From contig OZ320314.1 of assembly GCA_976226885.1 (NCBI GenBank), positions 119,908,001 through 119,972,000 on the forward strand: a DNA stretch of 64,000 nucleotides. The letters run 5' to 3'. The translations under genes and the position numbers were made by a program. Below, one piece after another: positions 7,565 to 58,084 of this stretch; the stretch's first letter is position 1; every line of letters starts with the position of its first letter. The DNA is from Iphione sp. A-MEVVRFRX5. Lineage: Eukaryota. Below the pieces are notes generated by a model. That model was not told where the DNA came from and made no database searches. It was given only the letters and a program-made list of their open reading frames with translations.

Positions 7565-7900
7565 GGCCTAAAAAAAAAGTTCTGTGTTTCTGGTAGTAAG
7601 CCAAAAAAGAGAGGGTCGGTTTGTAGGTGGTGTTTTATTTATTATTCTTTTTTTACAATGTTAACCTGATACTGAAAGTCACAAATGCACATGGTAACAC
7701 CACTTCCCCTGCTTGGATCTCAATGAAATTGATATCAAATGAAAGCTGAGGTTATAAGGAGGAAAATGGTGTAAAGAACACATCTCTATCCCTATTCAAT
7801 CTCGAGGTATTCACAAAACCAGAAAAAATAAAATGTCACAATTGACTCTAATGTAGGGTCGGTCGGGTTACTGGAAACACAGAACATTTTTCATTAGGCC
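7565..7900. mobile_element. PIF/Harbinger-type MITE (same family)
   Basis: GGCCTAAA...ATTAGGCC termini, TTA duplication at 7562-7564 and 7901-7903. Confidence 0.8.
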
Positions 7901-23400: not shown

Positions 23401-26400
23401 TTTTTCATTATAATTCAGTTGAAACAATGATTTGAATGGTTTTTGTTGTTTCAACAATACACAACCTAGTTTGGTAGATGAAGACATGACAATGTTTATT
23501 TTCTTCTGGTTTAGTGAGTGTGTGTAGTGTGTAGAAATTTTGTTCACTATCAGTCTCTGAGTCAATGAATTATTTCTTATTATTAGTTAATTCTTTGAAT
23601 GTCTTTATAATGTATCTAACATGCATATGCTCCATTTGTTCTATTTGGTTGCTTTTGTACTCCCAATACTATGTTTCATTCCTTATTTCAATGTTGAAAA
23701 AGTGTAAATGACACTTGTCTGCTATTTACTTTTTTTGTAAAATCAAACAAACAATTGACTTGTTCCTATCTAGTAGAAATTAGGAATTTGCCATGATCTC
23801 TCGTCTGACCTTTCATGGTGATATACTGAAGAAAATACAGATGTTTCACTCTCCATAATGTTAGAATATTATTTAAAATGAAACAATTTTGGGGCACTGA
23901 AAACATACAAACAACAATAGACAGACATATAAATCATAAATGAAGATTATTCATAGTATACTAATTGCTGAAGCTGAGGAATGTTGGAGTATCTTCCTCC
24001 TATGATTTGATTTCTTGTGCAGTGTAAATTTATTACTTATTATGGCTTTCATTGCCGGGACTTGATACTTGAAGCCTTGTGATGATTAAACGTTCTGAAC
24101 ATGCATGCAGGAATCATCCAGTGTCCCCACAGATTCTGTTACTGCTGTCATGAGGTTCTAATAAAGCCTACACTGTACATGTATGTGTCAATAAGTGGTC
24201 ATCAAATATACAATACTATGTCTTCATGTTCCCAGTGCCGATGATTACTTCAATCCGGATCATATGAATGGTTTCTACAGCCGAATCAATTATCTTGGTC
24301 AGATTACCTGGTTTCTTGTTGGAGAGTATACCATCAGTTGCAATATGGACACTACCAACTTTCCCTTTGATATCCAGACTTGCTACATACAAGTTTCCAG
24401 CTGGAGTATGAACCGGAACAGGTTAATAATGTACACATGGGTAAGAGCTTCTGGTTTTTTTTTACACCAACACTACCGGATAAGTGCTGACTATGAAGAC
24501 TACTGATGGGTTATCATATACAAGTGGAATATAGAACCAAATAGAAGGAAAAGGAGGGTGAGAAACGATAAGAGTACATGTAAGAAAATACAGTGAATTG
24601 CATAGCATTAGTTTTGCTAAATCAAAATTGTACCTGTGATAAAAATATACACATATAGAAACTTTATTTACTACGATCTCTTACCTCTTTGCAGAACACA
24701 ATCAATTCTACCGTACTTCAATTGCACTTGGAACTTTCTATCTCTGTCTATATCTATCTATTTTTTTTTCTCTCTTCCTACTTCTCTCTCTACAGAAACT
24801 TCATACTTTAATGTGTTCCATCAAATCAAAAGGCTTTACTTTACTCTGTTTTCATAACTCCACTACTTACATGTGACAATTCATCCAGCAAACTTAAGGT
24901 AGGAAATTGCATACACAATGTGAATATGTGTTAGTACATGCAAGGTGCTACATGTATTTGTGAGAGAAAATGTGTACCCAAGAGTGTTTGAATGAGATTT
25001 GACATCACAGCAGCATTGCTAAAATTTCAACAGCAGAATCTCACTAACATATGCCCAATCAGTCAATTATATTATTTTTGAAAATGCATATTGTATGTGT
25101 CACATTTTGCCAAGCTATGGGAGGGGAGATCTCCCCACACTTGAACTTCAAGGCTTTGATTCTGTCTCCATCTCTTTCCTGTTCTCTTTTTCCTACTCTC
25201 TTTCACCTTTACTGTGTCTCTCTATCTCTTTCTTGCTTGTTATCCTCCTTTAAGGCAATGTTGTTCTGCCTGAAGAGCATTTAAATATTGATTTTCAATT
25301 TTTAAGCTGAATTTCCTTCATAATACCTCTATGGGAAAAAATTATCTGCTAGTGATATTTCTGATATGTCTGCTAGTGATATTTCTGATATGTCACTGGC
25401 AGATTGTATTATTTCTCATTTTCTTCTTCTTCCTCTGCCTTTTTTCTCATATTGAAAGTCTTCTGTCAGTCATCATGTACATTTTTTTTTAGTATTTTCT
25501 CAAAAGCAGAAAAAGTTAGTAAATAGAAGTAGTATCTGCCTGTCCCTACTGCAACAGATGTATCATACACTTAAATATTCTGTTTATTTCATAGGTTACA
25601 GGTGCTCTCAACTTCGAATTATTCGTACCAAACGGTCAATGGGAAATCACCAATTCATCAGCAGCAGTTCAAACATTTGAACCCCAAAGTGCTCCTGGCC
25701 AGCAGTTTGATTCAGTTGCTTTCTATTTAGTCATGAAGAGGAAGCACACCTTCCACCTCCTCAATACCATTGTCCCAATGGTGCTGGTAAGGCAGTGCTA
25801 AATTAATCCAATTTATAACATTAATATTGACCAATATAATTGACCCATCCCCTATGTACATGACAAGTATGCATGGAGACATGAAACAATGATATAGCCC
25901 AGCTATAGCAGAATCAAATTTGCAAGATGCTCAAAAGTGAAAAGACATGATATCCTTTAGGACATAAGGTGGTGATCAGTCAATTAGTGTTGGTTGAGAT
26001 AATATCTCAGATATTGATACAAATATATAAGGGTCAGTATTATGTGCTCAAATAGAATATGAAATGTTGTCTGTTTGGGTCTAAGTTTTATCAGTTAGTC
26101 TACATCAGTATACATACATGCATACATATCCACATCAACCACCATTTTCTCATTGGCAAGTATTGAGATAGTTATAGTGAGAAAACATTTCAGTGAAATT
26201 ACATCTTTTTCTATATTGGTGTACATATGGATAGGTTCCCATGTGTACATATCCACATCTGCATCCATGTACACTTCAGATGGACCATGAAGCCACCATG
26301 TACAGGTGTAGATATGTAACTGTGGATAACATATTTTTAGTCAGTTGTTCTTTATTTTCATAGCCCCATTTGTCTGTACATTTATCCACATCCTCACTAT

Positions 26401-29400
26401 GAATTATACATGGATACAGATACAGATGTAGATACAGACACACAGGTGAGGCATCTATATGTACAAGTACATTTTTTATTTTACCAACAGACAATCCTCT
26501 TGGTTCCTACCCTGTTCTTGTTACCTGCTGATTCAGGAGAAAAACTGGGACTTGGAGTAACTATTCTCCTGGCCTTATCTGTTTTCCTTATTACACTATC
26601 AGAAACCACCCCTAAAAGTTCTGACTACGTCCCAATCCTCAGTAAGTAGTGGGAAAATGTATGTCAGATGACTATATAATACACTGAGTTAGAATTTGTA
26701 TGATAATGGAAGATTTCTATAAATATATTATAAAATAGAACAGCAGCTTTGTTAAAGCAGATATACATGTATGATATTGTATACATGTATGCATACAACT
26801 GTTTAATTAATGAAGACCTATTTCTCAATATGCAACTGCCCTTTTTGATTAAACCCAAAGTACTTTTCCATAAGTTAAAATGTCAAATTATATGTCTGAA
26901 TGAACAAATATATCTATTTTTCACTTTACTTACAGCCATATTTGTGACCTTCCAAATGACTATCACGGCAATATCTGTCATAGCGACGACCCTCATCCTA
27001 CGTATGCATTTCAATACATCCCCAACGCGGCCTGCCCGTTGGCTTAGAACCCTTATTCTACGTTACTTCGCCATTGGTTTGTGCATGGGTGATCAGAGAA
27101 AAGAGGTATTTATAACTTGAATATCATATAGTAGTAAGTCACTATTGGGAAATCCTCTGTTCTTAATAGAAATGTGTCCCTATTAGGCAAAAAAATATCT
27201 GTTTCTGGCAATAACTGAAAAAATAGGGTTTGTAGGTAGGTAGCTTTCTTTCCTCTGTCAATGGAAGCTAAAAGCAAAAATTATGTGCTTTCAAGGAGGC
27301 ACTTTTACTGCCTTAGTCTTAATGATACTTCTACTGTCTGAAAACTGATGATGTAAGGAATAAAATTATGTATATTATACATCTGTAGTGTCATTCAGCA
27401 GCAAGATATTGACTAAGTAATTATTTGACAAACTGCAATACTCCCAAAATTTGGGTTGGTCAGTTTATGACAAACATGCACTTCACACACATGTTTCACA
27501 TGCAAACCCATGGGGAAAAAGCTTCTATAACAATCAAAGCATGAGGTGTACTGAACCTTGCCTTCTGGGTTTTAATCAGTTCATCAGTTCAATGGCTTTA
27601 GTTCTACTATTGTTCACTAGTTATCCTCCTGAGATGGAGGTGCTACCCCAACCAAGCAAAGTACAATCCCTCAGCTAGCTCAAGTGAACCTATTATCATA
27701 ATTGTTCATGGGATTGCATTAGGCATAGCTGGCTTGCCAATTTATGATAACTGCCTTGCATTATCCTCAAGCAGATTATTTTAGTTGCATTTTTTAAACA
27801 TTTTTTCTACAAAATGCCAGTTTGAACATCACAAAACCAGCATGCTGCCTGGTTATAATAATGGGTCCCTACTACATCAGTTATCTCCCTTTATCAGACT
27901 GTTTGTCCCTGTCCTTGCCAAGCAATGTCTATCAGATTCTTGTTGCATCCCAGGTAACAACATTCTATACATTTTTTAAATGTTGCAGCTTGGTTTGGTA
28001 AAAGCTGTGAAATAATCTTAATAAAATGTAAGGTGAACTTTGTAAACATTTATAAAATGTTGCAGTTTGAAGCCCTAGGAAAAACCTTCACAAAACTTAC
28101 TCAGCTGTCCAACTGTGGGATTTGAACCCACTTTTTCTAAATCAATACCTAACACCCAATCCACTGTACAATCTTGACTTATTTTACATCATGTTAAAAA
28201 ACCTTATTTATTGTCCAATGGAACTAAGCTACAATGTTCTAAAGACATTAATAATCAAACTACAGTAATTCACAAATATATAGTAATGTGAATTCATTTT
28301 CACATTTTGTGAATTAGTTTTCTTACCTAACCAAACCACTATGTTTCTTGTAATTTTACTTGCTTGTGATCATTAAGCATTTATATCATGTCGTGTGAAG
28401 GTGTTTTATTTGTTTAGAGGTGTTTCATTTGATCTAAACAACTACAGCGTTCTCTAAACTTTTCATTCTCTTATTACCTGAATGTTATGTTTTAAGAGTT
28501 ATACAACATTGTAAGAAGGTTGTTCTCTAACCTAACCAAACAACAATATTCTAAAGCATTTCGTAACACCATTTGTTACCTTGGGAGTATGGCGACACAT
28601 TCAGCATGCAGCACATTGACCCCACTTGTACTTTGTTTTTGACATTTTATATAATGATCAATTTCTTTTTGCAGCTCTCTTGATGGAAAATTAGTGGCAC
28701 AAAACATATTCAGGTATGATTGATTACACAAGTATTTTTTTAATGATATACAGGTGAAGGATGAACAAGAAGATACCTGGTCCTCGAAAAAGGCAGGTAT
28801 CAGGGAGAGCTTGGTTTCATTAAAGGAAAAAGCACAAACTGATGATGAGTATGCTAAGATGAGTCGAGGAAACCAAAAACTACTTGACTGTTTGCAGGTC
28901 ATTGTGGAAAAGATCAGAGGTAATATGTCTATTTCAATATATTTACTGAAGCATTCTATATGTAAAATAGTGTGTGTGTTCAATGGCTTCTAGTTGCATC
29001 CTATGCAAAGCACCTATAACCACATTTTTGTCAACTGGAAAGCATCTAGTTACATGTACACCAAAATTTGAAAGTTCATAAAGCCTTAGGAATTTTAGAA
29101 AAATTTGTATTTCTGGTAACCTAACCAACCTTAATTGGGGGCCAATTGTAAATACTTATTTTTCATTGTTTTGTTAAATAGCTTTAAAACAGAAAATGTT
29201 GGAGAATTATACTATAGAGCATCTTCTTCCTTCAATTTCACATGATACCAGTTTCATGAAAATCTAAGGAGTAGAGGTGATACTGCTGTATACATTTATT
29301 GCTTTCAGTAATGGTTAACATTGCAAAAAAAAGATTTTAAAAAATACCACCTATATACTGCCCCTACATTCTTTCAGCCTGTTACTTGAAACACAGATAA

Positions 29401-29615
29401 CTTTTTTTAAACTTCATTATAGATAGAATGCAAAGTATGTAAATGGTTCTGGTGGAAACTTGTATTTTAAAGATGATGAGGCGGCGAATGAAGTCTCAGA
29501 TGAATGGAAGAGGATTGCATTTGTACTGGACCGGTTCTTCTTTTGGATTTTTTCTGTCACAATTTTCATTGCAACTGTGTACATCTTTGCATCTGGGGCT
29601 GCAGCTCAGGTTTAA
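11424..29615 (+). CDS. Nicotinic acetylcholine receptor-like Cys-loop cation channel subunit (non-alpha), 460 aa; exons 1-2 plus cassette A
   Basis: Exons 11424-11490, 13612-13745, 22467-22511, 23076-23185, 24236-24440, 25595-25786, 26491-26641, 26936-27105, 28754-28919, 29473-29615. All GT-AG, phases consistent, 1383 nt in total. Signal peptide MDKEKARLLCMAFVIANMCGQA; YNTDARP; WQDPKLSWNP; Cys-loop CNMDTTNFPFDIQTC; M2 GEKLGLGVTILLALSVF; M4 EWKRIAFVLDRFFFW; nAChR-typical 45- and 110-nt exons; no vicinal CC in loop C. Confidence 0.93.
13531..13600. repeat. (TAT/CAT)n trinucleotide microsatellite
   Basis: Directly abuts the exon 2 acceptor TTGTTGAACAG. Confidence 0.9.
13790..14000 (+). mobile_element. 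Tc1/mariner-type MITE left arm
   Basis: TA then CAGTAGAACCCCT.., with repeated GGACAACC/GGACCACC motifs; no matching right TIR found nearby, so the right boundary is approximate. Confidence 0.55.
14410..14612. repeat. Degenerate ~20-bp tandem repeat
   Basis: Recurring ATGGCAAAACAGAGGGATGT-like units. Confidence 0.65.
16006..17350 (-). mobile_element. Penelope-like element (PLE) ORF remnant, N-terminal/RT start
   Basis: Minus strand ..KPWQPPPGPSSLESF.. then IVIKPVHQGVKIVILSCEDCVAEAPSRLAKKESYHEMEKDLT, matching the PLE motif IVIKPADKGGxxVIxxxxDYxxEAxRQLxxxxxYxxLxxDPT; decayed. Boundaries approximate. Confidence 0.65.
18163..18420. mobile_element. PIF/Harbinger-type MITE (reverse orientation, right terminus damaged)
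   Basis: TAA then GGCCTAAT..CTGTGTTTCCAGTAACCCGAC; inverted GTTACCGGCAACACAG..TTTAGG at the other end. Confidence 0.7.
18560..19170 (-). mobile_element. CR1/L2-type LINE RT C-terminal fragment
   Basis: QYLGILLDNKLNW...LSYVKKFI...LVLTMALPVMDHGS matches the post-RT LINE motif YLGxxLDxxLxW. Confidence 0.7.
19178..19650. repeat. 134-bp tandem repeat, ~3.5 copies
   Basis: CAT(A/G)CGTCTG recurs at 19178, 19312, 19446 and 19580. Confidence 0.9.
20403..20572. mobile_element. Tc1/mariner-type MITE
   Basis: Perfect 19-bp TIR CAGTAGAACCTCAGAACTG, TA duplication on both sides. Confidence 0.85.
21755..21902. mobile_element. Degenerate Tc1/mariner-type MITE containing the start of the duplicated unit
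   Basis: TA-CAGTGGAATCTC ... GAGGGATTCTATGG-TA; its right part recurs at ~32060-32185 and ~57090-57198. Confidence 0.55.
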
Positions 29616-30439
29616 TAATAACCATTCTGCATGCTACTAGAATGGATAAGAGGAATAAATAGCACCCATCATCACCCATCATAAAAATGTAACTAAAAAA
29701 TGAAAAAGTTTAAAATCTGATGAATATGGATTTTCACAGTGTTTTTGTCTTACATAATATATCTTATGTGCTGTCTATACGTTTAGGAAAAATATTTCTG
29801 AATAATTGTTTTCTTTCAAATCATGAAGGTTTTATTATACCCAAGAATAGAATAATTGATATCAACATAAATTTTGTTTCATGCAAAGTTTTGTTTTGTT
29901 TCATAGAACTTACATTATTCTTCTTACTTGTGTTCTTGCACTAAGTATGTAGTTATCATTATTACGAATATTTTTCATACACTGTAAATAGGAAGAGTTT
30001 TGACTGTGATTTCCTGGAATATAAGCAATTTTAATAATCTCATACGGAATTCAAACCACAACCAGAATTGGTTCTATCTTTAAGGTTCACACAAAGATTT
30101 CAGGATCTTTTGGAAACCTCATTGAAATAAGTATGGGTATAATTCTTTCATTTCTCTTTCACGATCACTTGCCCCCGCCTTATTAAATCCTGTAAAATCT
30201 GTTTTACCTGTCAGTCTGTATGTTTATTTCCATTTGATATATCTACCAGATATTTTCTTTGATGGAGGTGTGTTTACCCATAGAGACAATAAACCACACC
30301 TTTTCCAGAGTAGTAATTTAAAAGAGTGCTAGAAGGAGGCAGCCTATTAATGGACTGTGATGTGTATCACATACATATACTGTACATGTACAGTGTATTT
30401 CACATATATTTTTTAGTAAAATTTTATTCTCCTTATTGG

Positions 30440-32373: not shown

Positions 32374-35300
32374 AATGAGAGGGAACAGTCTGTGACCATA
32401 ACAGCTTATTTTGGTTTGGTAAGTATGTTTTTTAAATATTCATTGATTCCAAACTTCCTGTTTTATCATGCTTTATGTCTATTGTAATCATTGTAGATAG
32501 GTTTGAAAATCTATGAAATTTTGCATTGCCATTCATTGTTTATTGTGTATAAAACGTTTTTACAGCCAATATAATTTCATGATCAATAATCTTATAACAA
32601 TATTGTAGAAATTAAGAAAGCATACATGGTGCTTTCAGTGCTTCAAGAGTCCCTTCAACAACTCCATGTACTATGTTCAATGAGCAAGTGCCATATATCC
32701 TGAATTGATGTGAGATAATGTAGATTAATGACTAATATGAGATCTAATTGAATATTGCCTGATACACCTGACCTGGTATTTAGTGGAAAAGCAAGTAGTG
32801 CAACCATAGTTTCAAATTTCACCTGGAAGTTATGTTTTATAATGTCCATAATGATTCCGATTAAAGAATGATATTTTTATAGAGAACATTCTTTTTCCCT
32901 AAAAGTCTTGGAATGATCCTAAATTAAGTTGGAATCCAGCTGAATTTGATAATGTAGTGGAAATCACCATGGACCCCAAACGACATTGGAGGCCTGCAGT
33001 TGGAATATACAACAGGTAATTATGCACAGACAAAGTATTACTCAAATACTTTTATGAGCTTTCATCTAACATACATATTTATATGTACATGTTCATCTTA
33101 GACTTTAAGTATGGTTTCAAGTGAAAGATGTTGTAGATTCATCATGACCAAGGGAAAGAACAAAGTACCTTCCTGAGGTCAAAGTGATAAATTTACCAAC
33201 TTTTAACAATAATACATACTTAAAAAGAGTTTTCCATGATAATTTAGTTTGGATAGTACCTGTTTGAATGGTTTTGGTTGTTCTGTTTTGGCAATATGCT
33301 ATCTGTTACGTTTTATGATGGCCTGACAATGTTTAGTGAGTATGCCTAGTGCATCCAAACATTTTTCAGTTCTTGTCTGTGAGTTAATGAATTATTAAGT
33401 TAACTGTTAGGATGTCTTTATAATGCCCCTAACATGCATGAATATTGTAACACAGTAGAGGTTGACGGTTATTATGATGGGACTGAATGGGAAAAGGGAA
33501 AACAGTAGTTATGATAGGGATACGAGACTGCTGTATGTATAGTGTACAGATATACGTAATTGTAAGTAGGGCCACTTGTGGAGCCATGTCGCTTTGGCTA
33601 AAACATTTTCGTGTAAATAGGATGTGATCTTTCGCGAGCTCCGCAGTTCTTCGTAATCAGCAGTAACGGTAATAGGACCTTACGGTCATTCAGAGACTCC
33701 TTGTTTCGCACTGCGCAAAACAAGATAAGAGATATTTGGTACCAAGCGCTACCCTGGAAACGAGGTGTTAGTGACGTCAATCCGGTAGAATAATTAACGA
33801 CTCATTGTATCCGAATGTAAGTTGGACATCTGACGAACGGCATCTTCCGGTCCGTTTGAGTATATAAGATTAGCGGTCCGAGTAGTTGGTCGGACTCGCC
33901 CCAGTTGCTGTACATCGTTGATGCTGTGTTGCTGAACCTTGAAGAATAAAGGCTGAATCGAACCTGACTTGCGGTGTTGCAATTTGTGCTACACCCATCT
34001 TTTGGTGCCGTGACCAGGATCAGCTGAATAACATCGAACTTCATGTGGGCGTTAACACAACAACCCTTCGTTAGCGAGGTCGCGGAAGAGGCAAATCGGC
34101 ACGTCGTCTACTCATCCTACTTCGTCAAGGGACGAAGACCGCTTCATTCACGGTTCAGAGGGCGACGGAGCCGGCTGAAGATTATTACGGGCGTGTTGGG
34201 TCGACCTGCGCGTTCCCTGTACATCATCCGAGAACCCAGGTTACCCCGACGCGTCACGGAGTGGGACCTGCCGAGAGGGGTGCGCTGACTTGGTGACGAA
34301 CAGCCACTGGATTTGTCAGGGTTATCCCTGAAGGAACGAACACCGAGTCCGAGGGCAACGACGGTAATTAAGGGCACCAGGCGAGTGTCCCCCGATCCAC
34401 ATCGGGATCGGTTAGCAGTGTCGGCAACCGTTCGGGAACTCGGAGGGCCGGGTTGCCTGCAGCTACCCCCTGCCAAGGCAAGCAGGACGTCGGACCCGTC
34501 GCCGGAGCTGAGTCCCCAGGACCTGAGGCACACCATCACGAGGCAACGGGCGGAGAAGGCCGAGGACGCTCTACAGCAGACGCGGCGAATTTTGCGATCT
34601 ATGAACATTGGCGAGATCGCACAAGACGAGGCCTTCGTGCTGTGGGTTGCGAATCGGGGATGAGGACGACCGGCGGGGAATCCGGCGACCGTGCGACCGG
34701 GTCGATCAACGAGTGCCTGAGAACGGACTGAAAACGAGAACGAGATGGAGCTGAGGCTGAAAGGTGAGCGGGAGTTTGTAAACTCTCTGCCAAGATTTTA
34801 GGTGGGAAAAAGGGTCCCGAGGGCAGGGCCTTTTAAAATTCGTTGTGGGTAAAAAGTACCCCGGGTGACATGGATTTGACCACTTTGCAGTTTGACTCCC
34901 GATCTGTCGGATATATTATAATTATGCTCCTCCTTGCCGCTGTACTAATGGGGGTCCTGGGATATCTGACATGTAGACTGGTCCCTGGGTGTGGCGCCCC
35001 AGAACTTGTGTTGGTGGGAAAGGAACCTGAACCGTACGCACTACCCTAGGCCTATGTAAGTTTCATTGATGGCGGAGCCCGTAGGCCCCGCTCCTATGGA
35101 AGTAGGGCCCGACTTGCAGCGTTGCTTTAGAGGAATCAACCAGCATTTGGCTAAGGTAACTGAGAATTTGAGTATCCAGGGAGCGAAGCAGTCAGTGCCT
35201 AGCTTTGATGGGAAACCTAAGAGTTTCAAACCCTGGCTAAAAGCTATTGAGCATGCCACTATTGGTTACGTTGTTCAGCCAGACGGGGCTGTACGCTTCA

Positions 35301-38300
35301 AACAGCGCTTGGCTCAGCTGACCGCTGAAGGGCTGGTGGCAGATTACATCATACGCTACATTGAAGAACAAGACAATAGGCTACGGGGGGATGATCCACA
35401 GGTGGGGGAACCACCCTTGACTGTGGTAGAGTGGGAACAATTTAGAGAACAGCTGTCACGACGGTTTGGGGAAGTAATTGACCCAGTTCACGCAAAGGGG
35501 TTGTTGAGGAAATGTAAGCAACGTTCGGATGAGACAATCTATGTCTACTCCGAGCGGCTGCTTGACCTGGCTAGAGATGCCTTTACTGCCGAAGAGATGC
35601 GGCAGGCTGCCGTGCAACAGCAGTTAGTGGAATTCTTCACGGATGGCGTTAAGAATCCAAAGGTTGCCAGGATGATTATTAGAGAGGGTCCAGTGGATTT
35701 TGTGGCCGCAGTGGCGTGTGCCGGAGGAGAAACCGAAGTTCTGAGACATATTTCCCTGCGGGGAAGGGATGATCACACTCCTATGGAGGTGGATGCTATC
35801 GATGCCAATCGGAAGCGGTTTCAGGGCACGTGTCACTGTTGCGGGAAGCAGGGGCATATGGCAAAGAATTGCTTTGCGGCCAAAACTAAGCTGAAGGGAC
35901 AAAAGGAGGGTGCGCCCCAGCAGCCGTTGCAAAAGGTGATTAAAAAGGTCCAGTGTTACGCATGCAAGAAATTTGGACATTACCAGTCTCAATGCCCGAA
36001 TAAAACCTCAGCCACAGCTACATAATTAATTTGCCGACCAAATTGTGCAAAATGGATAGGCCAACGATAAAGATCAAGGTAGGCCCATACGGGTTTCGCG
36101 CTCTGCTAGATACTGGGGCAGACGTATCAGTAGTGAGGGAGGATATCTACCGCAGTCTGGAAAAGAGACAGCTAGCTACCCCTGTGGGGCCTCCGCCTAC
36201 GGCAGTTCGAGGTGTGGATGGGGGAGAATTACGGCAGGAAGGGACAACTGTTGTCGGGTTTTCTATATTGGGAAAACACTTCTCCACGGAGTTCCGGATT
36301 ATGAGTAGTACTCGTCACACGTTCATTCTGGGATGGGATTGGTTAAGCCAACACCCCATGCAGCTCTTACCAGAGGAGGGCATGGTGCGATGTGGGTCAC
36401 TGCTGGTTCCCATGATTGGGGAGCAGCAGATTGACGCCATCGTGCGCGCCGAAGCAGACACAGTGCTGCCGCCGGGCACTGCGGTGCTGGCGTTCGGGAA
36501 TCGTAGACGAAAGGGGACCCTGGGAGAAGATACCGCTGCCATGATAGTCCGTGGCTCCAAACAGAGCTACTTAACGGAAGAACCGGGCGTCCTGGTGGCG
36601 AATTGTCTGACAACGATAAAGTCGGAAAGGGTGCCGGTGCTCATTGTTAACACTACCACCCGTACTCTTATGGTGAGAGCGGGAAATGTGATCGCAGAAG
36701 TGGAAGCTGTGACGGATGGGAATTATGTGGAGCTGGGATTAGTACAAGCAGATGCCTCGCCCGCTCCTAGGGAATTGAAGACGGCAGCAGCTTCGTTAGA
36801 GGAATTGTTGACAAATAATGAGGACCTGTTTGCGGCCTCAGATATGGAGTTAGGATGCACCCATCTCGTCACAATGGAAATTGACACCGGAGAACATGAG
36901 CCAATAGCACAAAGACCGTATCATACCCCGTTATCCAGACAAGCCGTGGTGGAAGAAAAGATTCAAGGCATGTTGGATGCCGGAATCATCCGCACTAGTC
37001 GCAGTCCATGGGCCTCACCAATAGTGTTGGTGGAGAAAAAGGACCGCACTATGCGGTTTTGCGTCGATTATCGACGAGTTAATGATGTGACGGTTAAGTT
37101 CAATTGGCCGTTGCCCCGCATTGATGACATCCTAGCCAAACTGGGAGGTAGTACGTGCTTCTCGACGTTAGATCTGCGGAGTGGCTACCATCAAGTACCG
37201 ATGGAGGAAACCTCGTGGCCCAAGACTGCGTTTGCTTGTCACGCTGGCTTGTTTGAGTTTATGGCATGCCGTTCGGCTTATGTAATGCGCCGAGCGTCTT
37301 TTGCGAGTTAATGGCTAAGGTACTGGATGGAATTAATGGAACTTTCACCACTGCATATATCGATGACATATTGGTCTGGTCCCCGGACCAGGCCACTCAT
37401 CTCTGCCATTTGCAGATGGTGTTTGACAGATTGCGGGATGCTGGACTGAAGTTGAAGCGAAGTAAGTGTGACTTCTTCTGCCCTCAGCTGCAATATCTGG
37501 GCCATGTAATTACACCAATGGGGGTGCGGCCTGATGAGGGTAAAGTTGCCAGCATCTCTGAACTGGAGCCGCCTGAAGACGTGAAGGGAGTAAGATCCTT
37601 CATTGGGATGGCGAGCTTTTATAGAAGGTATGTGCCATCATTTGCCCAGATTGCCGAGCCATTGATCGCTATGACACGGAAGCGAGCCGAGTTCCAATGG
37701 ACTCCGGAGTGTCAATGCGCCTTTGACACCCTTAAGGAGAAACTGACCAATCCTCCTCTGCTGGCCTTTCCTGTCTTCGACAGGGAGTTCATTTTGTACA
37801 CCGATGCTAGCGACGCCTGCATCGGAGCTGTGTTGGTACAAGAATTTGACGACGGGGAAAAACCGATCCAGTATATGTCGCACCACCTGAGTGAGACTCA
37901 ACAGAGATGGCCTGTAATTGAAAAAGAGGGGTTTGCTATTGTCTCTGCCATACGCAAGTTCCGCGCTTTTCTCTATGGACACAAATTTGTTGTCCGAACT
38001 GATCACAAACCTTTGAAGTTCCTATTTAAGTCAGAACAAAAGAATGCGAAGGTCCAGCGATGGGCTATGCAGCTTTCTGAGTATGACTGTGAAATTCAAT
38101 ATATTCCTGGTAGGGAGAATATCCCAGCCGATGCTTTAAGTCGGTTGTGGTCCGGTCGGACGGACCCACAGGTGGAAGCCCCCACTCCGGAGGGTGAGGT
38201 GGCTCCGCTCGACCGAACCGCGTCGGATGCGGGGTCGGGGCCCCTTGAAGACTCCGCACCCGAACCGCACGCGCAAAGTACAGACGGTAATGCCCCCAGT

Positions 38301-41300
38301 ACCGACTCGGAGGGGGCAGATGTGCTTCAGACTCAGGAGCTTGCGTATCCAGAAGGCATTGAGACAGCACAGACCTTGGATCCGGAGTGTCAAAGACTCC
38401 GGAAAGGGCCGAAATACATGAAGGTGGAGCAATTGTGGTACTATGTAAGCGAGCGTCCGGAAGCTTGCTTGCGGTTAGTAGTACCCAAGGTATACCGTAG
38501 TGCAGTGCTGGATCAGCAACACGATCAGATGGGGCATTTGGGAATCGATAAAACGTACGACCGAGTGCGAGCACTGTACTACTGGAAGAATTTATTTAAG
38601 GACGTCGTCGCTCATGTACGTGCTTGTGTAATATGTAACACACGTAATCTGAAGAGGCAATTAAGGCCACTTCAGGAGATGGAGAGTATTACCTTTCCAT
38701 TTCAGAAATTGGCGGTCGACACCTGTGGACCGTACCAGGAATCCGAAGCCGGGTACGTGTATTTGCTGACCCTTATTGACGTCTATTCCGGGTGGCCTGA
38801 GATGTTCCCCATGAAAAACAAACAGGCCCAGACGGTCGCGACAATTTTCCTGAATGAGGTGATCCCTCGACACGGATGTCCCGTAGTACTGTTATCCGAC
38901 AATGGGACGGAATTCGTGAATGAAATAGTGAAGGAGCTTTGTCGACAACTCGTGGTAGCCCGTATCACCACTAGTCCGTATCATCCTGCGGGAAACGGTA
39001 AGGTTGAGCGGATGCACCGAGTTTGGAATGACGTCGTGGCGAAATTGACCCAGGGGGACATGGCACATTGGGAGAAGGTTGTGCCCTCTGCTCTGTTGGC
39101 TCTGAGGATGAGTACTAACGAGTCAACTAAGTATACTCCCTTCTACCTCCTCCACGCGAGGGACCCAATATTGCCATTGGACACGTTGCTCCAGCCGCGC
39201 GTGAGATACTACGGGGAGGAGCATCATAAGCTCGCCTTACAGCGTCACCATCAGGCTATGACGGTGGTTCGTCGAAACGTCGCTGCAGCGCAACAACGCA
39301 TGAAACGATATCATGACCAGCGAGCCGCCGACGTGTCCTTTGAAGTGGGAGATCCTGTGTTTGTGCAGAACCCACTCCGTCGCCATAAGTTAGATGTACG
39401 GTGGCAACCTTATGGGCGAATCGTTGAGAAACTCACCCCAGTCAATTTCATTGTTAAGGATCAGGTAACGGGGAAGTTGTCGAAGGTCCATAGTGATCGC
39501 TTGCGGATGGCAAACCTGGACTGGCGGGTGCCAAAGCAACGGGATGGACGACCGCGGCGGCGTGTTGCATTAGCCGCTGATGGGGCAACCTCCGGTTCGG
39601 AAGGGGGCTCGTCCTCGCCATCGGATGGATCCGATGGGTTCTCTTCCGCTGATGAGATTCCCTTAGCCCAGTTGTTTGGGAGAGAACGGCAGCACGAACT
39701 TCGTGATCTGCAGAATGACCCTGATCTTCAACAGGAAGAAGGACAGGTCGAGGTGGAGGGCCCTGTCGGTGCTGACGTTAATCCACCTGATCAGGTGCAC
39801 GGACCTGATGTGGTTGAACCCGATCCGGCGGCCGAGGATCATGGTGAAGGGTTAGAAGTGTTGCGCGACCAGCAGGTCGCCCGTGCAGTAGAGCAGCACG
39901 AGGCTGGGAAGGAGGCCGTCGCCCCAGTCGACCCGCCTGCAGCTCCTCCTATGGACGCAGGAAATAGGGAAGAAGGTGCAGTGGGAGGTCGGGAGCCGAC
40001 TCCGCCGCGAGCACCTGAGACCGACGGTCAGCCAGCCGTGGGGCCGGAGGACCGTAGGCCACACCGATATCGCACAAGGGCAGCCGTAAAACGAGAGCAA
40101 ACGCTGCCGACCGAATTGCCACCAATGTATAAACGTCCACGTCAATTTTGGACACGAGGACCATGGTATAAGAGGGATAGGGCCGAGCCTGGAGAAGAAT
40201 CTCGTAACAAGAAAGCTAAACATTTAGAATTGTTAACTCATGAGCCTGTTGCACATTTAACTGAAGCCTTAAAAGATCTGCAGACTGTAACTTCCATTTT
40301 ACGTAATCTTGCAATGACAGGGAAGAGTGCGCCTGACATTTAATGAGACGCTCTTTCCTCTGTTGCAGGGTACGTATGGGTGATGATGGGATTGGTCCTT
40401 ATTCGGTTGGTCGCCAGTGGGACGCTTGAAAACATGATCTTCAAAAAACGGCTAGGCGTGAAGTCGGTCTTGTCGTCCTGGCAATTGGATTTGATCTCCG
40501 AATATGACCGCTACAAGCGAGTGGGGAGTGAGTTGGCTGATGAGCTCAACCGTACTCGGTACGGATTGCTGAAAACCACGTATAGTCTCATTCCCCCTTG
40601 GCAGATCTATGGCAGCCGGCCTCGTGAGGAACCAGTGGCGCGGCTGATTATGAAATCGCAATTAGATCGAGCGGCGATTTTACAAGCTCGAATCCAGCAG
40701 GGTATTGGACGAATTGACAATATAGCTAAGCTTGGCACGGAAGAACGCGCAAGACGCTTCCAGGAGGAACGCGTGGAGCGCCTGGATATATTCGGATACC
40801 GTAATCGATCCCGAGCGAAGCGTCGCCCGGCTGTGTTATTGGCCGCGGTAGGAGGTGTAGTATTGGTAGCCGGAACTGCTACTGGGTTTGGGGTTGTTGG
40901 AAACGAAATCCACGTGATCAAACAACGAGTTCATCAACTGGAAGCTCAACAATTAGAGACCTTAACCATTATGAAGGACATGATGACCGTAATTAATCAG
41001 ACGCGAGTGGACGCTCGGAGAAATCGTCAGCACATCAATGACGTGCTGAAGACATTGAAGGTAGTGGAAGTTGATCTGTGGCAAGCTATTCATGTTATGA
41101 GTAATATCACCACCCGAGAGATATGGCATATCCACGGTATTCTGAATGCAGAACGATTCTATTCACGATATGAATACCGTTTGGAGGCTTGGGAAACATC
41201 GATTGCGCGACTGGAGGCTCGTATTGACTATCTCTTAGGAGGCCGACTGACACCCGAGGTGTTGCCCGCCACCGAATTGCAAGGAATCTTACTGACTATC

Positions 41301-44300
41301 GAGCATCAGTTGCCAACCCAACTCAAACTCCCGTATCAGGTCTCGGACATGTGGAGCTATTACAGCGCTCTACCGGCCACTACTGTCATTTTCGAAGGGC
41401 GAATCATCACTTCGATCATGATTCCCCTAGTTGATCCTTTGGCGTCTTATACTATCTACGAGGCAGTGAATATTCCTGTCCCTATGGCCGATGGACGAGC
41501 CATCAAGTTTGACTTAGAGTTTAAGTATTTCGGTATTACCCATGACAGGCGACGTTATGCCATCGTTACCCCAGAAGAACTCATTCACTGTCGGTTGCAG
41601 GAAGACTCCTGTTTGGTATCATCTCCGGTATATGAGTTAAACTTACACTCCTATTGCGTTCTGGCCATTTATCGACAAGAGGTCAAGAGGGTGCCTACGT
41701 TGTGCACGCGGAGCATTCTAACTGGGCTTACTATGCCACAAGCCAAGTATTTAGATCAAGGAAGTTGGGTAGTGACTACACCTGTCACCCTGTCGATGCG
41801 TATCCAGTGTGTTAACGGTAGCACTTATCGTCATAATGTGCCGGCCCTGTTCGCTTTAGTTAAGCTACCCAATGGCTGTGGAGCCATGGGAGATGATATG
41901 TCATTGCCAACATATTATTATCAGCGTAATGAGTACGAGGTCGAGCGGGATCCTATTGAACTTCCCGCCAAACTCTTGGTTACTGAGTTATTGGTATGGG
42001 TTCCGGAGCTCCCTCCAGCTCCGAACCATTCCGGTTCTCTGCAGCCCCTGCCGGATTTTTCAGAAACGGATATTGAAGGTATTGTCCAGCGTATCAATGC
42101 GCTTCATGATAAGGTCGCTCGAAATCCCTTGATGCCGGGTACCTCACCTCTCTCAACAGTGATGTGGGTCATTGGGGGGTTGAGCTCTGCCCTGACACTA
42201 TGTGGTTGTTGCTATTGCTGTTTTTGCAGCAAGGGACGTTGGAGACGGTTTTTAGCCACCCGAAGGTCCGATAGCCCTAGTCCGGTTCAGACACGGCGTC
42301 CCAGGGATCTTCCCCTATCACCATTAATCTGGGAGGTGGTTCCAATTCTCCAACCCATTCATCGGCGAGCGCCGGAGAAACCCTGTCCCTGCGAGCCCTG
42401 CCTTCCCCAAGTGCACCCGAGCCTGCCCGTATCGTGCCCGAGTGTGCCATGAAATTCAAACAAGGTCCTAAGGAATTTGAGATCTATCGTCCTACTAATT
42501 CAAAGACCCCCACGGAATTGTATGCTCCTAATGAGCGCCCCTTCTCTGTGTTCCGTTAGGAATCGAGTTGATAGTCACAGTCTTGGCAGAAGAGAAAGAA
42601 ACTCTTGCTCAAACCTGTGAATTTGTGTGTATTCATGAATACTATGTATCTGTCCAATAAAAGTGTCAATGTGTATGTACCTGCAGGAATTATATTCAAC
42701 TCTGTATTGCAATGTCCAATGTGAGAAATTACTGCTTGTGTAATCATTGTTCAGTTAAGCACAAGGGTTTGGACACGGGTACCCCAATATTCTTGTATAT
42801 AATGTTAAGATCGGTGTTAACCAGCATCCAGGGTGTGAAATATATAGGACATTATGCTGTACATATTCGTTCCCAGAAAGTGTCACTCATGGTGTTGGCC
42901 GTTATGAGGTTGCCTTTCAACAAGAGGTGCTTGCTTGGAAGGACACCTCATAAAAATTGGAAGATTATGAAATCATTCCTTTCTTCCTCTTCCCTTTTGG
43001 CAGCTTTCATGTCATTTGTGGCCACAGCAATAGACTCTGAAGCTCGTCCTTTTCCACATCCTGGGAGGCCAGAAGGTCAGGTTGGAGAGTGAAAATTCTC
43101 CAGTTTGATTGCCGTCCTAGGAGCTCGAGAGAGTAGGTGCTCTCTGGGCTGGGATGATCCGTGACAGTAGGACCACAACAGTCCGTAAGCCACATTGCCG
43201 ACATAATAATTGTTGGAGAGTCAAGGCTTAGGCTGTTGTCGGTGTGTCTTAATTGCTGAGTTCGCGAAAAGCCGGTCTTAATGGGTGCTGTATAGTTAGC
43301 TTTTTGAAACGGGAGTGGGAAAATTTTGATGATGTCCCTTAAACCTCTTGATGTATAGGTCCTTCTTGCCGATGGGGTAGATTTCTCCATCGGGTTGATG
43401 GGTTTGACCGTCCTCTTCATCCCTCTTCTCAGTCTCGTTAACCACAGTGATATATTTCAATGTGCCACTGATTGGTTTTCTATCCTCATCTTCTGTGAAA
43501 GTAACCAGGCTCTCATGTGAGGGTTATCCAGCCACGTCTCTATCGTCTCTGTGTAAGAGGCGCTGCCTGCTACCTGGTAGTACCACTCGTGGTTGGTGGG
43601 TGCGTGTCATTCCTGTTGAACTTGTCATACTAAACATGTTTGTTGAATCAGTTTCCTGTATCTTTAACCATAATGCGAGCCAGGTATTTTAAAGTGGACA
43701 TCTGGATCTTGTTGATGTCCATCGCCAGGTGTCGTAACAACAATGCTGTGCATTGTTTCCTAAGGAGGGGAGGGATGTAACACAGTAGAGGTTGACGGTT
43801 ATTATGATGGGACTGAATGGGAAAAGGGAAAACAGTAGTTATGATAGGGATACGAGACTGCTGTATGTATAGTGTACAGATATACGTAATTGTAAGTAGG
43901 GCCACTTGTGGAGCCATGTCGCTTTGGCTAAAAAATTTTCGTGTAAATAGGATGTGATCTTTCGTGAGCTCCGCAGTTCTTCGTAATCAGCAGTAACGGT
44001 AATAGGACCTTACGGTCATTCAGAGACTCCTTGTTTCGCACTGCGCAAAACAAGATAAGAGATATTTGGTACCAAGCGCTACCCTGGAAACGAGGTGTTA
44101 GTGACGTCAATCCGGTAGAATAATTAACGACTCATTGTATCTGAATGTAAGTTGGACATCTGACGAACGGCATCTTCTGGTCCATTTGAGTATATAAGAT
44201 TAGCAGTCCGAGTAGTTGGTCAGACTCGCCCCGGTTGCTGTACATCGTTGATGCTGTGTTGCTGAACCTTGAAGAATAAAGGCTGAATCGAACCTGACTT

Positions 44301-47300
44301 GCGGTGTTGCAATTTGTGCTACAATATGATCAATTTAATGTACTTAGTTCTTTTTGTTCTCTCAAAACCACTTTTTATTCCTTCCTTATTTCCATGTGGA
44401 AAAATTCTAATTGACACTTATCTACCATTTTGGTTTTCATAAAACTGAATGAAAAAATGACTTGTAGCTAACTTATGGAAAATCAGGAATTTGTCATGAT
44501 CTCTCCTCTGCACCTTTTGGTGATAAACTCACAAAAATATAAACGTTTCACTGCCCATCATGTTAGAACATTCCTAAGAATAAAACAGTGTAGGGAAAAT
44601 ATGCAAACAACAAGAGACAGGCATAACAATCTTTCATAAAGATTATTCATAGTTCACTGATTGCTGAAGCTAAGGAATGTGGGAGTATGTTCCTCCTATT
44701 ATTTCATTAATTTTAAGTGCTTAATCCTACTAACAAATTATCTGTCTTTCTAGTAACCCAGCTGACCTTGATTTCGGTGCCAATTGAGGATTTTTTCGTT
44801 TTTTTGTAATTATATTAGCAGTGAGTAAGGATCAAGACTTGCATTTCATGCCATAGTATTCCCCACACTTTTACCTTTGGTTTGGTATAAGCTTTATTAA
44901 GATATAAGTAGTGCAACTGAAATGGCCATATGTTTTATTTATAGGACATGTTACTGGAAACTGGATGTTTTTATGTCTTAGGGAGTGGAAAATTTGCAGT
45001 ATACGTGTACATGTATATCTTATTAGGACTTTCATTGCCAAGATTCATACCTAAAGCTTTATGATGATTATTTTTTCTGAGTGTTTTGAAATTCTCTATT
45101 GTATTGGGGACATGGCTAGATCCTTTCCCTTTAAAATGCTACCGAGTTCTGTGGAGCCTAAGGTTTGTTTATTCCTGAAGTCAGTGTGTCTGGGGTACCT
45201 ATTGGTCAGTTCAGTTTGACCAATGGGAGTCCTTGGGACTCCAGGTGGTGGTGGGCCCCCCAAAAAAGGGGTGGGGTGGATCAATTTACACCAAAAGAGA
45301 GGCCCCAGACTCATGTGCTAGTGCTATGCATAACTTCAGGATGGCACAGAGGGTTATCCCGGTTTCGACTGCTGTCTCATCAGGCATATATGGTGGGAGT
45401 GTATGTGCAGATTACTGGGAGTAGAAAAAAAATTTTTTTGTTGAAATTCTCTATATAACTACTTTATCATCATGAGGTTCTAATGAAGCCTACATTGTAT
45501 ACATATATGCCAATAAGTGGTCATCAAATACTTAATATTATGTTCTCATGTTTCCAGTGCCAATGATTACTTCAATCCGGATCATATGAATGGTTTATAC
45601 AGTCGAATCTTTGCTGATGGTACTGTCATGTGGTTTTTTTCTGGAGAGTATACCGTCAGTTGCCCCATGGACACCACCAACTTTCCTTTTGATATCCAGA
45701 CTTGCTATGTACAAGTTTCCAGCTGGAGTATGAACCGGAACAGGTTAATAATGTACACGTGGGTAAGAACTTTTATTTTTCCTTGAAAACCCTAAAAAGA
45801 TTAATACTGCCTCTAGGCACTCCTACACTAAAGTCTGATGATATCTGAAGACTCCTAACTCCTGAAAAGGGCAAGTGATCCCTGAAGGCATCATGGAACA
45901 ACAGTAGGTTTTAAATGGGTTTATTGATTTTTTTTTGCCTTCCTATGAAAAGGAAACATGCAAAACCATTACAATGGTCTCGTTTTTCCTAACCCATGGC
46001 AGAGATCCATACCATTTTAGATATTGTGTGTCTTTAAAACAGTTTCTTAGTTAAAGACCTTTGCCCTTTAGGAGTATATATACTTTTGGCAGGGGACATT
46101 TAGAGTCAAATAGAGAATTAGATAGAGGGCTGAATGTGGATTTAACAGAGGCTGAGGGTGGAGGGAATTTATTCTCAGAGGGATTCTGTTCTTGGAGGGG
46201 TTGCTGTTGACGTAGGGGTTTTTGTGCTGTTTGTTATGTGCATCTGTGTGTCTTTGTGGAGTGCCCACCAGTTGCCAACTATACCTGTGTTCTGTAATAA
46301 ATGTTTCATCTTGAACTCGACCTGGTCTGGATTCCTCATTCATATCAGCCGTGAGATTCAGCAGTAGGGTGGACAGCCAGCTATTCCAGCTCCCCTGGCC
46401 ATCAAGCAACCAGGGCTGGAAGTCCCAGCTACATAAGAAGTGTCAAGTCAGAGGATTAGCAGGAATGGCAGATGAGTACAGGAAAGGATTACCCCTGCAG
46501 GGCAGCATGAGTCGGAGTGGGGAGGTGAGGGGTGGGGGGCTGACCCCCACCCCCAGGACAGCCACTTGAGCCAAGGGCTGAGGAAGCACCCTGCATGGGG
46601 GAGCCCCAGGAGGTGGGGGACCCTGCGGACACATTTACATCAGTGGATGGGACTGTTGACATTAGTCAATCAGGAAATTGAGAAGGATGATACGCCAGCA
46701 GAGGATATTGAGACTCCCATGGAGAGGATGGCCACTCCTAAAGTAGGTAGGTGTCCATCAGTTAAACCTGAGCCCTTTGGTGGTACCCAGGGCCTGAGGG
46801 ATTGCCTCCACCACTTCCACTTGATAGTGATGCCCAATAACTAGAGTGAAAAGGAGAAGTCTGTGAAACTGGGGTTGTGTCTGAGGGGACACATGAGGAC
46901 CACTATGAGAAATGCACAGATGGCCTACCAGGAATTCATCAAGGCATTAGCAGACTGTTTCAATCTCCAGATCAGATTGTCCTATTGAAGCAACTCCAAA
47001 CGTACAGGCAGAGGACAGGAGAGGATCTGCCTCAGCTAGCAGATGAGATAGTGCGACTGGTGTAAAGGGCCTATCCTAGCATAAAAGGGTGGTGGGCAGA
47101 TGACCTCTGCCAGGAGAGGTTCATTCAGGCCATGTGTTACGTTGATGAGGCCATGAGGTCAACCTCTAGCCCTTGGCTAGTGGGATTTCCCCTCTAGCTC
47201 TGATGGTTAGGTGTTGACCTCTCATGCTAAAGGTCTGGGGTTCAGTTCCCTGTTGGTGCTCGCTCTCCAAGACAGGAAAAGTCTTGTTAAACTAAAAAAT

Positions 47301-55820: not shown

Positions 55821-57388
55821 ACAGTTTTCTATTTGCAATTTCAAGGCTGAGACCAAACCCAATTGCTTTTTACTATATGTAGAAGTTAATTATTATTAAC
55901 AAAATGTCTTAGAAAAAAATGTGTTGAAACTGAACACTTCTTTTACAGTGAATACGCCTTTTATTGTCAATGAAATAAAAAAGTATAGGAAGATATCCAG
56001 GATAGGAATGGACCACAGGAAAAGAACCAAGGGTGTCTGGATTAGGAACCTTATACTGTAACATGATATATGGAGTATGCAACATGTTTATAGTGTATGT
56101 GTATTATAGAGAATGTTTCTATACAATTACCCAAAATTCACCTTTATCCCTCCAAAGCAGAAAGTTATTAGCCTTATAATTCCTTATTTAAACATAGCCA
56201 TTGATGATGATACTAAAGACTTAGATTTCTCTGGTTTTACCTAGAGAATATTGGGATCTTGTTAGTGTGTGGTGTTAGAGGATTGTTATAAGATATGTAT
56301 TACAGTTGCCTCCGCCTAAAGTGACCACCTAAGGGACTGAGGAAAAGTGGTCGCCTAAGGCGACTGGTCTCCTAAGCCATTGGTTATTCCTCCTACTTAA
56401 TATCATTTGTTCTTTGAAATACTGGTCACACTGGCTGACTGGTCGCCCTAGCCAACTGGTCGCAGGGTGAGAGTCATCTGTATTAGATGTCATGTTAGAT
56501 ATTTTTGCTTGAAGAACATTTGTTATGAATTTGTCTCTCGATAAGTGTACATGTAGATAAATCAGGAAGGATATTTGCTATGCTGTTCATTGGTTAGCCC
56601 ATTGGGCAGACAATATCATATTTCAGGGGTGAACTGCCATTTATCTACAGTTGCCTGTAAACACAGGAAAAATAAAGATAGAGACAACTGACTAAATGAG
56701 GAAAACTGTCTACTTAGTACCCAATAAATTGAAATTACAAATCTGACTCAAGTTATGTTGTACATCAAAATGTCCACTCAGTGGGAAGCAGTCAAAAGGA
56801 ATTTTTAAATGACTGAACAGTAGGCTGTATATGAAAATGAGAGAAAACAGAAAGACACAAAAAGGCTAAAAACCATCAGTTAACTTCACCAATGAAAGGT
56901 CCAAATGTCAAATGGTTCCTCTTTGGGGGAAATAAAAGATATTCTCTCCTAGAGTCAGAAAAATGCTGTACGGAAGAGAGAGGTGTGAGAAAACAGCAGA
57001 TGGTAATAAGCAAAAGATACTCTCTATACATACAGTAGTTAATGGTTGAAAATTAAAAAATAATACACAAAAAAAATTAAAAGAAAAGAGAGACATCTTG
57101 AAAATTTAACCATGAATTTATAGCCTTTGTTCTGTCCTTCATACATATATAATGTGAGGTGTTATTAGAAGGTTGTCCAGAATGAGGGGTTCTACCATAA
57201 ATAAATTTTCAAATGTCAGTCACCATTATTATATAGGCTGACCACAGCAGCAGGATAACAACCTCTCTTGAAAAAGCTTTTCTGGTCAATTCTATGGACA
57301 AGTTGTCTAAATGTCAATAATTACCTCTCTTCATGTAATTGCTTGGAAATAGCCCCAGTGTAACAACAGTTTATTTTTTTCCTTTAAG

Positions 57389-58020: not shown

Positions 58021-58084
58021 GTAATTATGAGTAGACAAAGTATTACTCTCATATTTATATGAACACTCACTCATCTATCATCTA

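Follow-up and report, generated by a model that had tools for sequence, protein, structure and literature searches.

Env-carrying gypsy elements outside insects have by now been catalogued by the hundreds: Chary and Hayashi (PMC13524379) describe "ancient errantiviruses" with an F-type env in annelids, molluscs and barnacles. In the accessible part of this 2026 survey, 73 of the 74 annelid rows are F-type, and of the 17 rows whose primer-binding site (PBS) is purely His_GUG, 16 belong to F-type elements from annelids, molluscs or barnacles. Neither the route by which env is expressed nor its ability to fuse membranes is addressed in that part of the survey, and the word stem "splic" does not occur in its main text. 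For Drosophila, the accessible text of Senti et al. (10.1101/2023.08.03.551782) reports that in the subclades of ZAM and Beagle splicing links the main env ORF with a short peptide that has its codons upstream of gag and completes the signal peptide. Our literature search, in which subscription papers were thinly covered, found no prior report of env splicing in annelid elements.

The element analysed here lies in a 64,000-nt stretch of the genome of Iphione sp. A-MEVVRFRX5 (contig OZ320314.1, 119,908,001-119,972,000, forward strand), hereafter the window, to which all coordinates refer (Table 1). It is a recently inserted, full-length Ty3/gypsy retrotransposon (33446-44323) with an unbroken env, and all structural marks of the Ty3/gypsy group (Metaviridae) are present: LTRs, PBS, polypurine tract and target-site duplication. 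A recount of the LTR pair gave the 8 mismatches over 548 bp stated in the initial annotation, gap-free and with 7 of the 8 being CpG transitions. The empty site, with a single ATAT, is found near 23618-23621 in a paralogous host gene; searched against the PDB, one host channel exon matched generic Cys-loop receptors only. The description of a young env-carrying element with a pol frameshift and intact gag and env is thus borne out by the LTRs, the target duplication, the PBS, the gag-pol-env order and the ORF check. Downstream of env, a further gene was considered and rejected, the two ORFs there being of 143 and 149 codons and devoid of Pfam matches.

Table 1. Features of the Iphione element and its flanks (window coordinates).
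Feature	Position	Strand	Remarks
Target-site duplication	33442-33445 (left), 44324-44327 (right)		ATAT, 4 bp
5' LTR	33446-33993	+	548 bp, TG...CA; TATA-like box 33861, AATAAA 33945
Primer-binding site	34004-34021	+	Identity over its first 12 nt to the tRNA-His(GUG) PBS in the accessible part of PMC13524379
ORF0	34043-34663	+	206 codons, in-frame stop 34286-34288; basic Arg-rich stretch; candidate accessory gene
Coding end of first env exon (predicted)	34745-34763	+	ATG, five further codons and one base, then donor
59-aa small ORF	34870-35049	+	12-residue N-terminal part, one strong transmembrane segment (residues 13-33)
Second donor-like site	35053-35061	+	TAT|GTAAGT, 13 nt before gag ATG; overlaps ATG-TAA start-stop; out of env phase
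gag	35069-36025	+	318 aa, unbroken; capsid-like domain, two CCHC knuckles
pol	36004-40343	+	Protease, RT, RNase H, integrase in Ty3/gypsy order; two frames
Branch-like site, pyrimidine tract, env acceptor	40333-40368	+	CTGAC at 40333; 14/18 pyrimidines; AG ends 40368
env	40369-42452	+	Predicted class I fusogen of the F type, with a signal h-region, heptads, six conserved Cys and six N-glycosylation sequons
env furin site	40812-40823	+	RAKR, ORF residues 156-159
env fusion peptide	about 40830-40892	+	Hydrophobic
env Cys-rich TM	about 42159-42227	+	
Post-env region	42453-43763	+	1.3 kb; no recognised gene; 42600-43000 AT-rich, CpG-poor
Polypurine tract	43762-43775	+	
3' LTR	43776-44323	+	548 bp

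The pol gene is of gypsy type: Pfam recognises RT_RNaseH (E 7e-37), Integrase_H2C2 (E 2e-17) and rve, and both the RNase H and the integrase zinc domains are those of gypsy elements. It is read in the -1 frame relative to gag, and the gag/pol overlap contains no slippery heptamer of canonical form. The continuous RT-integrase ORF that marks intact copies in the accessible part of the survey (PMC13524379) is interrupted near 37260, where the frame changes within RT, a defect of this copy and not of the family; full Pol being impossible from the broken copy, its Gag and Env could serve sister copies only. A scan of viral contigs with the RT of the element as sole query returned no relative. In a 56-row tree, which includes no Drosophila element, the window falls in a supported clade of 26 rows (99/96) together with the env-carrying relatives L010 and L002 and a Mytilus edulis protein.

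With an F-type fusogen ORF beside a Ty3/gypsy pol, the element is an errantivirus in the operational sense of the survey (F- or gB-type fusogen; PMC13524379, accessible part), and it shares with the ancient errantiviruses the gag-pol-env order, the furin site and fusion peptide of an F-type env and the 12-nt His(GUG) PBS; it differs in a fusion peptide lacking the [LIVM]FG motif and in its broken pol, and none of the four annelid His-PBS rows in that part equals it in LTR length and spacing. Insect errantiviruses, by contrast, use Ser, Lys or Leu primers (10.1101/2023.08.03.551782, accessible text). Because the window element has a His primer and no pseudo-RNase H-sized insert, we tentatively place it outside the insect clade, so that an arrangement like that of ZAM and Beagle would be convergent. 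Lokiretroviruses (PMC7947760, accessible part) likewise have an Env that is related to Mononegavirales F and bears an RXKR site; they are elements of vertebrates that form the sister group of retroviruses and carry a tether domain plus RNase H, whereas here RT_RNaseH directly follows RT. In the ancient errantivirus group a "mini" domain, and not a pseudo-RNase H, comes after RNase H. The bridge at this place in the window element (about 110 aa, mostly low-complexity, with some 45 residues that look ordered from the sequence) appears too short for a second RNase H fold. A lokiretrovirus was rejected as there is no tether and second RNase H in the window pol.

The env ORF (40347-42452) runs for 701 codons with no interruption, and its product is, by sequence and structure model, an F-type class I fusogen whose fusion activity is predicted. 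The furin site, fusion peptide, heptads and Cys-rich TM of the initial annotation were all located, and the class I fold that it proposed was returned by profile and structure searches alike. Pfam gave Baculo_F (PF12259, E 9e-6) and left Fusion_gly (PF00523) unmatched; the two families, baculovirus F and paramyxo/pneumovirus F respectively, have the fold, furin site, fusion peptide, heptads and C-terminal TM in common with env. A full HMMER search collected 1,137 relatives, unlike a word-index search, which found no match, and annotated phages gave no match either. A profile of env matched the "fusion protein" 9w4d in the PDB (E 4e-27), which, like 9w4c, we guess to be a baculovirus F, the identity of both having been sought in papers and not found; a single-sequence search of the PDB gave chance matches only. 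The structure model reached a pLDDT of 79 (36 when folded from the single sequence), with the fusion-peptide region below 50. Among the matches listed, all PDB folds similar to the model were paramyxo- or pneumovirus F, while in BFVD baculovirus F stood near the top of the ranking; E values were 1e-19 against baculovirus F models and 2e-6 against the best paramyxovirus F, in structural alignments whose sequence identity to either group is only 8-16%.

The closeness to paramyxovirus F that the initial annotation saw by eye in the fusion peptide holds, by eye, for that part only. This segment is Ala/Gly/Val-rich, atypical for the Baculo_F family, and is devoid of the [LIVM]FG motif that 71 of 94 relatives carry; the six Cys, for their part, are kept in 108-110 of 110. 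Overall, the modelled and aligned protein is nearer baculovirus F, with the fusion peptide alone atypical, and a paramyxovirus-specific origin was rejected on the Baculo_F Pfam match and the E values of the models.

How such a protein acquires its start could be answered by splicing. The initial annotation paired a phase-1 donor in the leader with a strong phase-1 acceptor before env, and both motifs were located with matching phases. The donor (AAG|GTGAGC, exon end 34763) ranks first for U1 pairing among 72 GT sites upstream of gag and is the sole donor-like site 5' of gag that both lies in env phase and has an ATG in frame; the ATG at 34745 has G at -3 and at +4. The acceptor is joint second in pyrimidine content of 255 YAG sites in the element, and behind it phase 1 stays open for 693 codons, as against 4 and 19 in the other phases. 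Splice sites were scored by simple consensus and U1 pairing, with no trained models. Of 2000 dinucleotide shuffles of the leader, 85 produced a donor of at least 8/9 consensus that had a phase-1 ATG no more than 15 codons away, the thresholds having been set after the site had been seen. The codons between the acceptor and the first internal Met read YVWV, all hydrophobic or aromatic, which fits translation into the h-region; in the relative L010, which has its own Met, the matching stretch is polar. The start-to-mature-domain distance has a median of 27 aa among 79 relatives with a hydrophobic signal; here it would be 30 aa in the spliced form and 19 aa from the internal Met, and only 3 of the 79 are so short. 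An acceptor likewise lies 5' of the third ORF in both relatives whose DNA covers that stretch (L010 and L001). We therefore consider it probable, on these motifs, that env is expressed from an RNA spliced 34763->40369, in which six leader codons would give the start and the charged front of the signal peptide. In ZAM and Beagle the junctions were mapped experimentally (10.1101/2023.08.03.551782, accessible text), whereas this one is predicted, with motifs and phase that fit. Four ATGs (33921, 34043, 34601 and 34660) precede 34745 in the predicted first exon, so that initiation there would need reinitiation, shunting or internal entry.

Splicing with a short coding leader exon is the most likely route; the claim that env needs this exon is overstated, because the ORF is not strictly startless: two in-frame Mets (40383 and 40386) precede the predicted cleavage site and would allow a short signal of 12-13 residues. 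Env could thus be spliced and still start at its own Met, behind a leader that does not code for env and may end at 35055|35056, the weak out-of-frame ATGs being bypassed by leaky scanning, an account that we regard as possible and rather unlikely. An own-Met start after the acceptor is the rule among relatives, as in L010, L001 and P0371: most of them, including the closest full-length one (P0371), have their own Met and signal after it. The clade therefore does not as a rule use a coding leader exon, and no relative's DNA confirmed one. In P0227, P0260 and P0230 the own Met gives a signal of 14-15 residues, close to the 12-13 that are possible in the window element. The context of ATG 40386 is optimal (A at -3, G at +4), that of the out-of-frame ATG 40376 has C at -3, and a GTRAGT donor-like site just 5' of gag is present in the window, in L001 and in L002 (35 and 27 nt before gag in the latter two, matching the second donor's position). 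This site, 13 nt 5' of gag in the window, may be the main donor of the lineage. Yet it pairs with U1 less well than 34764, falling outside the best 12 of 122, and since its exon ends in AT the junction would make an out-of-frame ATG opening a 20-codon frame over the env Mets. An N-terminus as short as this is, moreover, the exception among relatives, and the hydrophobic stretch YVWV, like the leader's in-phase ATG and donor, would become a coincidence.

Two other accounts dispense with the leader peptide. A donor lying within gag could fuse env to a Gag peptide, an arrangement for which the Drosophila idefix subclade is a precedent and for which GT sites in env phase exist at 35514 (7/9) and 35910 (6/9); both are weaker than 34764 and would place 148 or 280 Gag residues before the h-region, which is no cleavable signal, making this very improbable. 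It is also improbable, if a little less so, that silencing keeps this copy from producing any env RNA, its open frame being kept by very young age and the donor match being chance: the CpG transitions between the LTRs point to host methylation, pol is broken, ORF0 is stopped, and the donor shuffle test reaches the 4% level only. Silencing would nevertheless concern the copy and not the family, whose progenitor needs an expression route for its acceptor, h-region, furin site and Cys pattern. A TM-anchored env made through a donor in the 59-aa ORF was rejected, no in-phase donor of at least 6/9 being found there.

Two leader ORFs, ORF0 and the 59-aa transmembrane ORF, were absent from the initial annotation. 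The length of ORF0 was reached in 24 of 2000 shuffles, and an equivalent of the 59-aa ORF in 0 of 2000. Neither has a Pfam match or a tblastn match among 87 loci; the leader DNA of six loci, several of these leaders being partial, contained no strongly hydrophobic ORF, and Atlas matches to the 59-aa ORF scored at most 0.77. The arrangement resembles sORF1 and sORF2 of the Drosophila MDG1 group (Voichek et al., 10.1101/2025.03.14.642691, accessible text): two pre-gag ORFs, a basic soluble one followed by a short single-pass membrane one, with a Tyr at the TM edge. The MDG1 group has no env, unlike the window element. The criteria given there for sORF2 are an MGxxxS/T motif, at least 3 K/R within 15 residues after the TM and a length of 60-210 aa. 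The 59-aa protein is a single-TM short ORF upstream of gag, as FAST-like sORF2 proteins are; it fails the sORF2/FAST-like definition because it has 59 aa, no MGxxxS/T N-myristoylation motif and a single K/R in the 15 residues after the TM (a polybasic tail is likewise absent), and membership was rejected on motif, K/R count and length. Tentatively, and with more doubt than confidence, one may picture a complex non-insect gypsy lineage of retrovirus-like make-up with two cell-exit tools: an F-type env whose own start has been lost and which takes one from a leader exon, and an MDG1-like leader module in which ORF0 is a basic regulator and the second ORF a small membrane protein with a single pass. 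The choice between the membrane-peptide and the envelope message would then fall to two alternative donors.

In the favoured spliced-leader reading, transcription would start in the 5' LTR near 33890, and removal of the intron 34764-40368 would take out the small membrane ORF, gag and pol; the six leader codons would supply the start and charged n-region, and the product would enter the ER, be cut at RAKR and, as a trimeric class I fusogen, be anchored by its Cys-rich TM. With this Env, particles or cells would be able to fuse with target cells, as happens with gypsy-type elements in flies.

As far as the accessible sources go, both the class (74 annelid entries, PMC13524379) and the mechanism (ZAM and Beagle, 10.1101/2023.08.03.551782) are already published; the element is mostly an ordinary addition to a large known family, and current understanding is not overturned by it. 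Its less expected feature is that a small membrane ORF accompanies an intact env. Annotation from ORFs only can misplace env N-termini. The element offers one exact junction (34763->40369) for testing, and it suggests a renewed origin, in a distant lineage, of the leader-peptide solution known from ZAM and Beagle.

The Ty3/gypsy element is real, well formed and of an already known kind, and its env is likely to be expressed by splicing, judging from the sequence. Its placement comes from an RT-RNase H tree of 56 rows (10 of 87 loci and 45 of 120 proteins, taken because they were close or carried a name). There the element groups with the env-carrying locus L010 and a Mytilus protein inside a supported clade of 26 rows, and the row closest to it is 62% identical. 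Over 12 nt the primer site is identical to the tRNA-His(GUG) site in Chary and Hayashi's table, and the combination of a His primer with an F-type env fits annelids and molluscs. Of ten env relatives looked up, a single one is named, and it is from the abalone Haliotis cracherodii. Pol has the Ty3/gypsy order of protease, RT, RNase H and integrase. As the initial annotation held, pol is broken (a frame change near 37260 falls within RT, at a point that intact relatives read straight through) while gag and env are open. No canonical -1 slippery heptamer was found in the gag-pol overlap (36004-36025), although four of five related loci checked have one; an in-frame Met stands at 36049, 5' of the protease. 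In L085, a locus of a more distant gypsy clade, one 2,387-codon ORF (948-8108) spans gag-like, pol and env-like regions, the last matching env at E 4e-17.

Features of the element and its surroundings (window positions)
Feature	Position	Remarks
5' LTR	33446-33993	548 bp
Primer site	34004	tRNA-His(GUG)
ORF0	34043-34663	206 codons, one stop; as long in 24/2000 shuffles
Leader ORF		23 codons, overlapping ORF0 stop
Leader ORF		18 codons, containing donor 34764
Leader ORF		59 codons, strong transmembrane segment; 0/2000 shuffles
ATG-TAA		between 59-codon ORF and gag
gag	35069-36025	open
env ORF	40347-42452	
3' LTR	43776-44323	548 bp
Channel gene, copy 1	22450-29635	Cys-loop (nicotinic-like), ligand-gated
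Channel gene, copy 2	32357-52574	tandem paralogue of copy 1
Channel gene, third copy	57168-59987	partial
Non-LTR (LINE-type) reverse transcriptase ORF	60447-62432	662 codons, Pfam RVT_1
THAP-domain fragment	1055-1324 (-)	under Pfam cut-off
Tandem repeats	52-632, 2958-4113, 19174-19650	

The LTRs bounding the element differ, as first counted, at 8 positions, with no gaps. Seven of the eight are CpG transitions, the 3' LTR being the side without the CpG in six of them; most of the 1.5% divergence therefore probably stems from host methylation, not long neutral drift, and the insertion is very young. CpG observed/expected is ~0.2 in the host gene region versus 0.8-0.9 in the element. A polypurine tract lies directly 5' of the 3' LTR, and ATAT, a 4-bp duplication, flanks the element on both sides; the other copy of the tandemly duplicated host gene lines up across the insertion site and has ATAT there just once. 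The second channel gene copy carries the element within an intron and on the gene's own strand (the surrounding exons lie near 32960-33070 and 45510-45770), so the element's acceptors and poly(A) signal could cut that copy's transcript short. The tandem copies are ~70-85% alike, introns included. Between env and the 3' LTR, a 1.3-kb region (42453-43763) that includes an AT-rich, CpG-poor stretch contains no recognised gene; two strong acceptor-like tracts at 43003 and 43432 have phase-1 open lengths of 28 and 85 codons.

Env belongs to the class I F-type proteins and lies closer to baculovirus F, because the ORF matches Pfam Baculo_F above cut-off (E 9e-6), a 118-sequence env profile scores E 4e-27 against 9w4d, a PDB 'fusion protein' (paramyxovirus F fragments reach only E 0.3), and the env model matches baculovirus F among predicted viral structures at E 1e-19, against 2e-6 for the best paramyxovirus F. 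In a full HMMER search, 1,137 relatives score E <=0.001 (82 at E <=1e-30); a Pfam scan of 21 gave Baculo_F in 14 and Fusion_gly in none, and six ectodomain cysteines are kept in 108-110 of 110 full-length relatives (from 150 listed of the 1,137). The Atlas ranking puts Baculo_F-bearing clusters first and second and a Fusion_gly cluster third, at a low recognition score that makes it a lead only. The alignment-based model (mean pLDDT 79, <50 across furin site and fusion peptide) matched, among the PDB matches listed, pneumo- or paramyxovirus F throughout (best E 2e-9, TM ~0.3). The proposed structural comparison with Baculo_F and paramyxovirus F returned class I F-type matches. The suggested closeness to paramyxovirus-type F holds, by eye, for the fusion peptide, not the whole protein. 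The peptide lacks the [LIVM]FG motif, which 71 relatives carry out of 94 whose furin site is recognisable (112 were examined); the motif is also absent from the three closest relatives that have the region. The structures most similar to env also include that of an uncharacterised abalone herpesvirus protein (A0A145VUZ2, BFVD; E 1e-17).

How env is started is a matter of probabilities. We favour, with some reservation, a message beginning with a predicted coding leader exon (six codons counting ATG 34745, exon end 34763) joined to the acceptor ending at 40368; avian leukosis virus Env likewise receives six codons from its first exon. Among the 72 GT sites 5' of gag, donor 34764 pairs best with U1, and no other good site in that set has an ATG in phase with env; such a combination arose in 85 of 2000 shuffled leaders. 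The acceptor ranks joint second by pyrimidine count among the element's 255 YAG sites; a branch-like CTGAC lies 35 nt before it, and the sequence behind it is open in phase 1 only. Initiation at env's own Met (40383 or 40386) would be a distinctly less probable route, and other routes seem unlikelier still. Several points count against the coding exon: 40386 has strong Kozak context, most relatives, including L010 and the closest full-length one (P0371), have their own Met after the acceptor, and the predicted first exon holds four upstream ATGs. In favour of the exon, the four codons between the acceptor and the first in-frame Met are all hydrophobic, and the distance to a conserved mature-domain anchor is 19 residues from the internal Met but 30 with the leader codons, against a median of 27 in relatives, where <=19 occurs in only 3 of 79 (110 sampled, 98 anchorable, 79 with hydrophobic signal; gene-caller starts). 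A second donor-like site at 35056, out of env phase, also counts against the coding exon and is placed like those of the related loci L001 and L002, with only a 6-of-9 site comparably placed in L008. After pol, L001 has an acceptor, then an ATG and a 50-aa signal-bearing frame without detected env similarity (6163-6320).

Upstream of gag, the ORFs of the 1.07-kb leader follow one another with almost no overlap, an arrangement that suggests translation via reinitiation. The layout resembles sORF1/sORF2 of MDG1 elements, although the 59-codon product falls outside the published FAST-like criteria. Neither Pfam nor tblastn against the 87 loci found relatives of it or of ORF0, nor did Atlas for the 59-codon ORF. 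This small membrane ORF is the part of the element most worth following.
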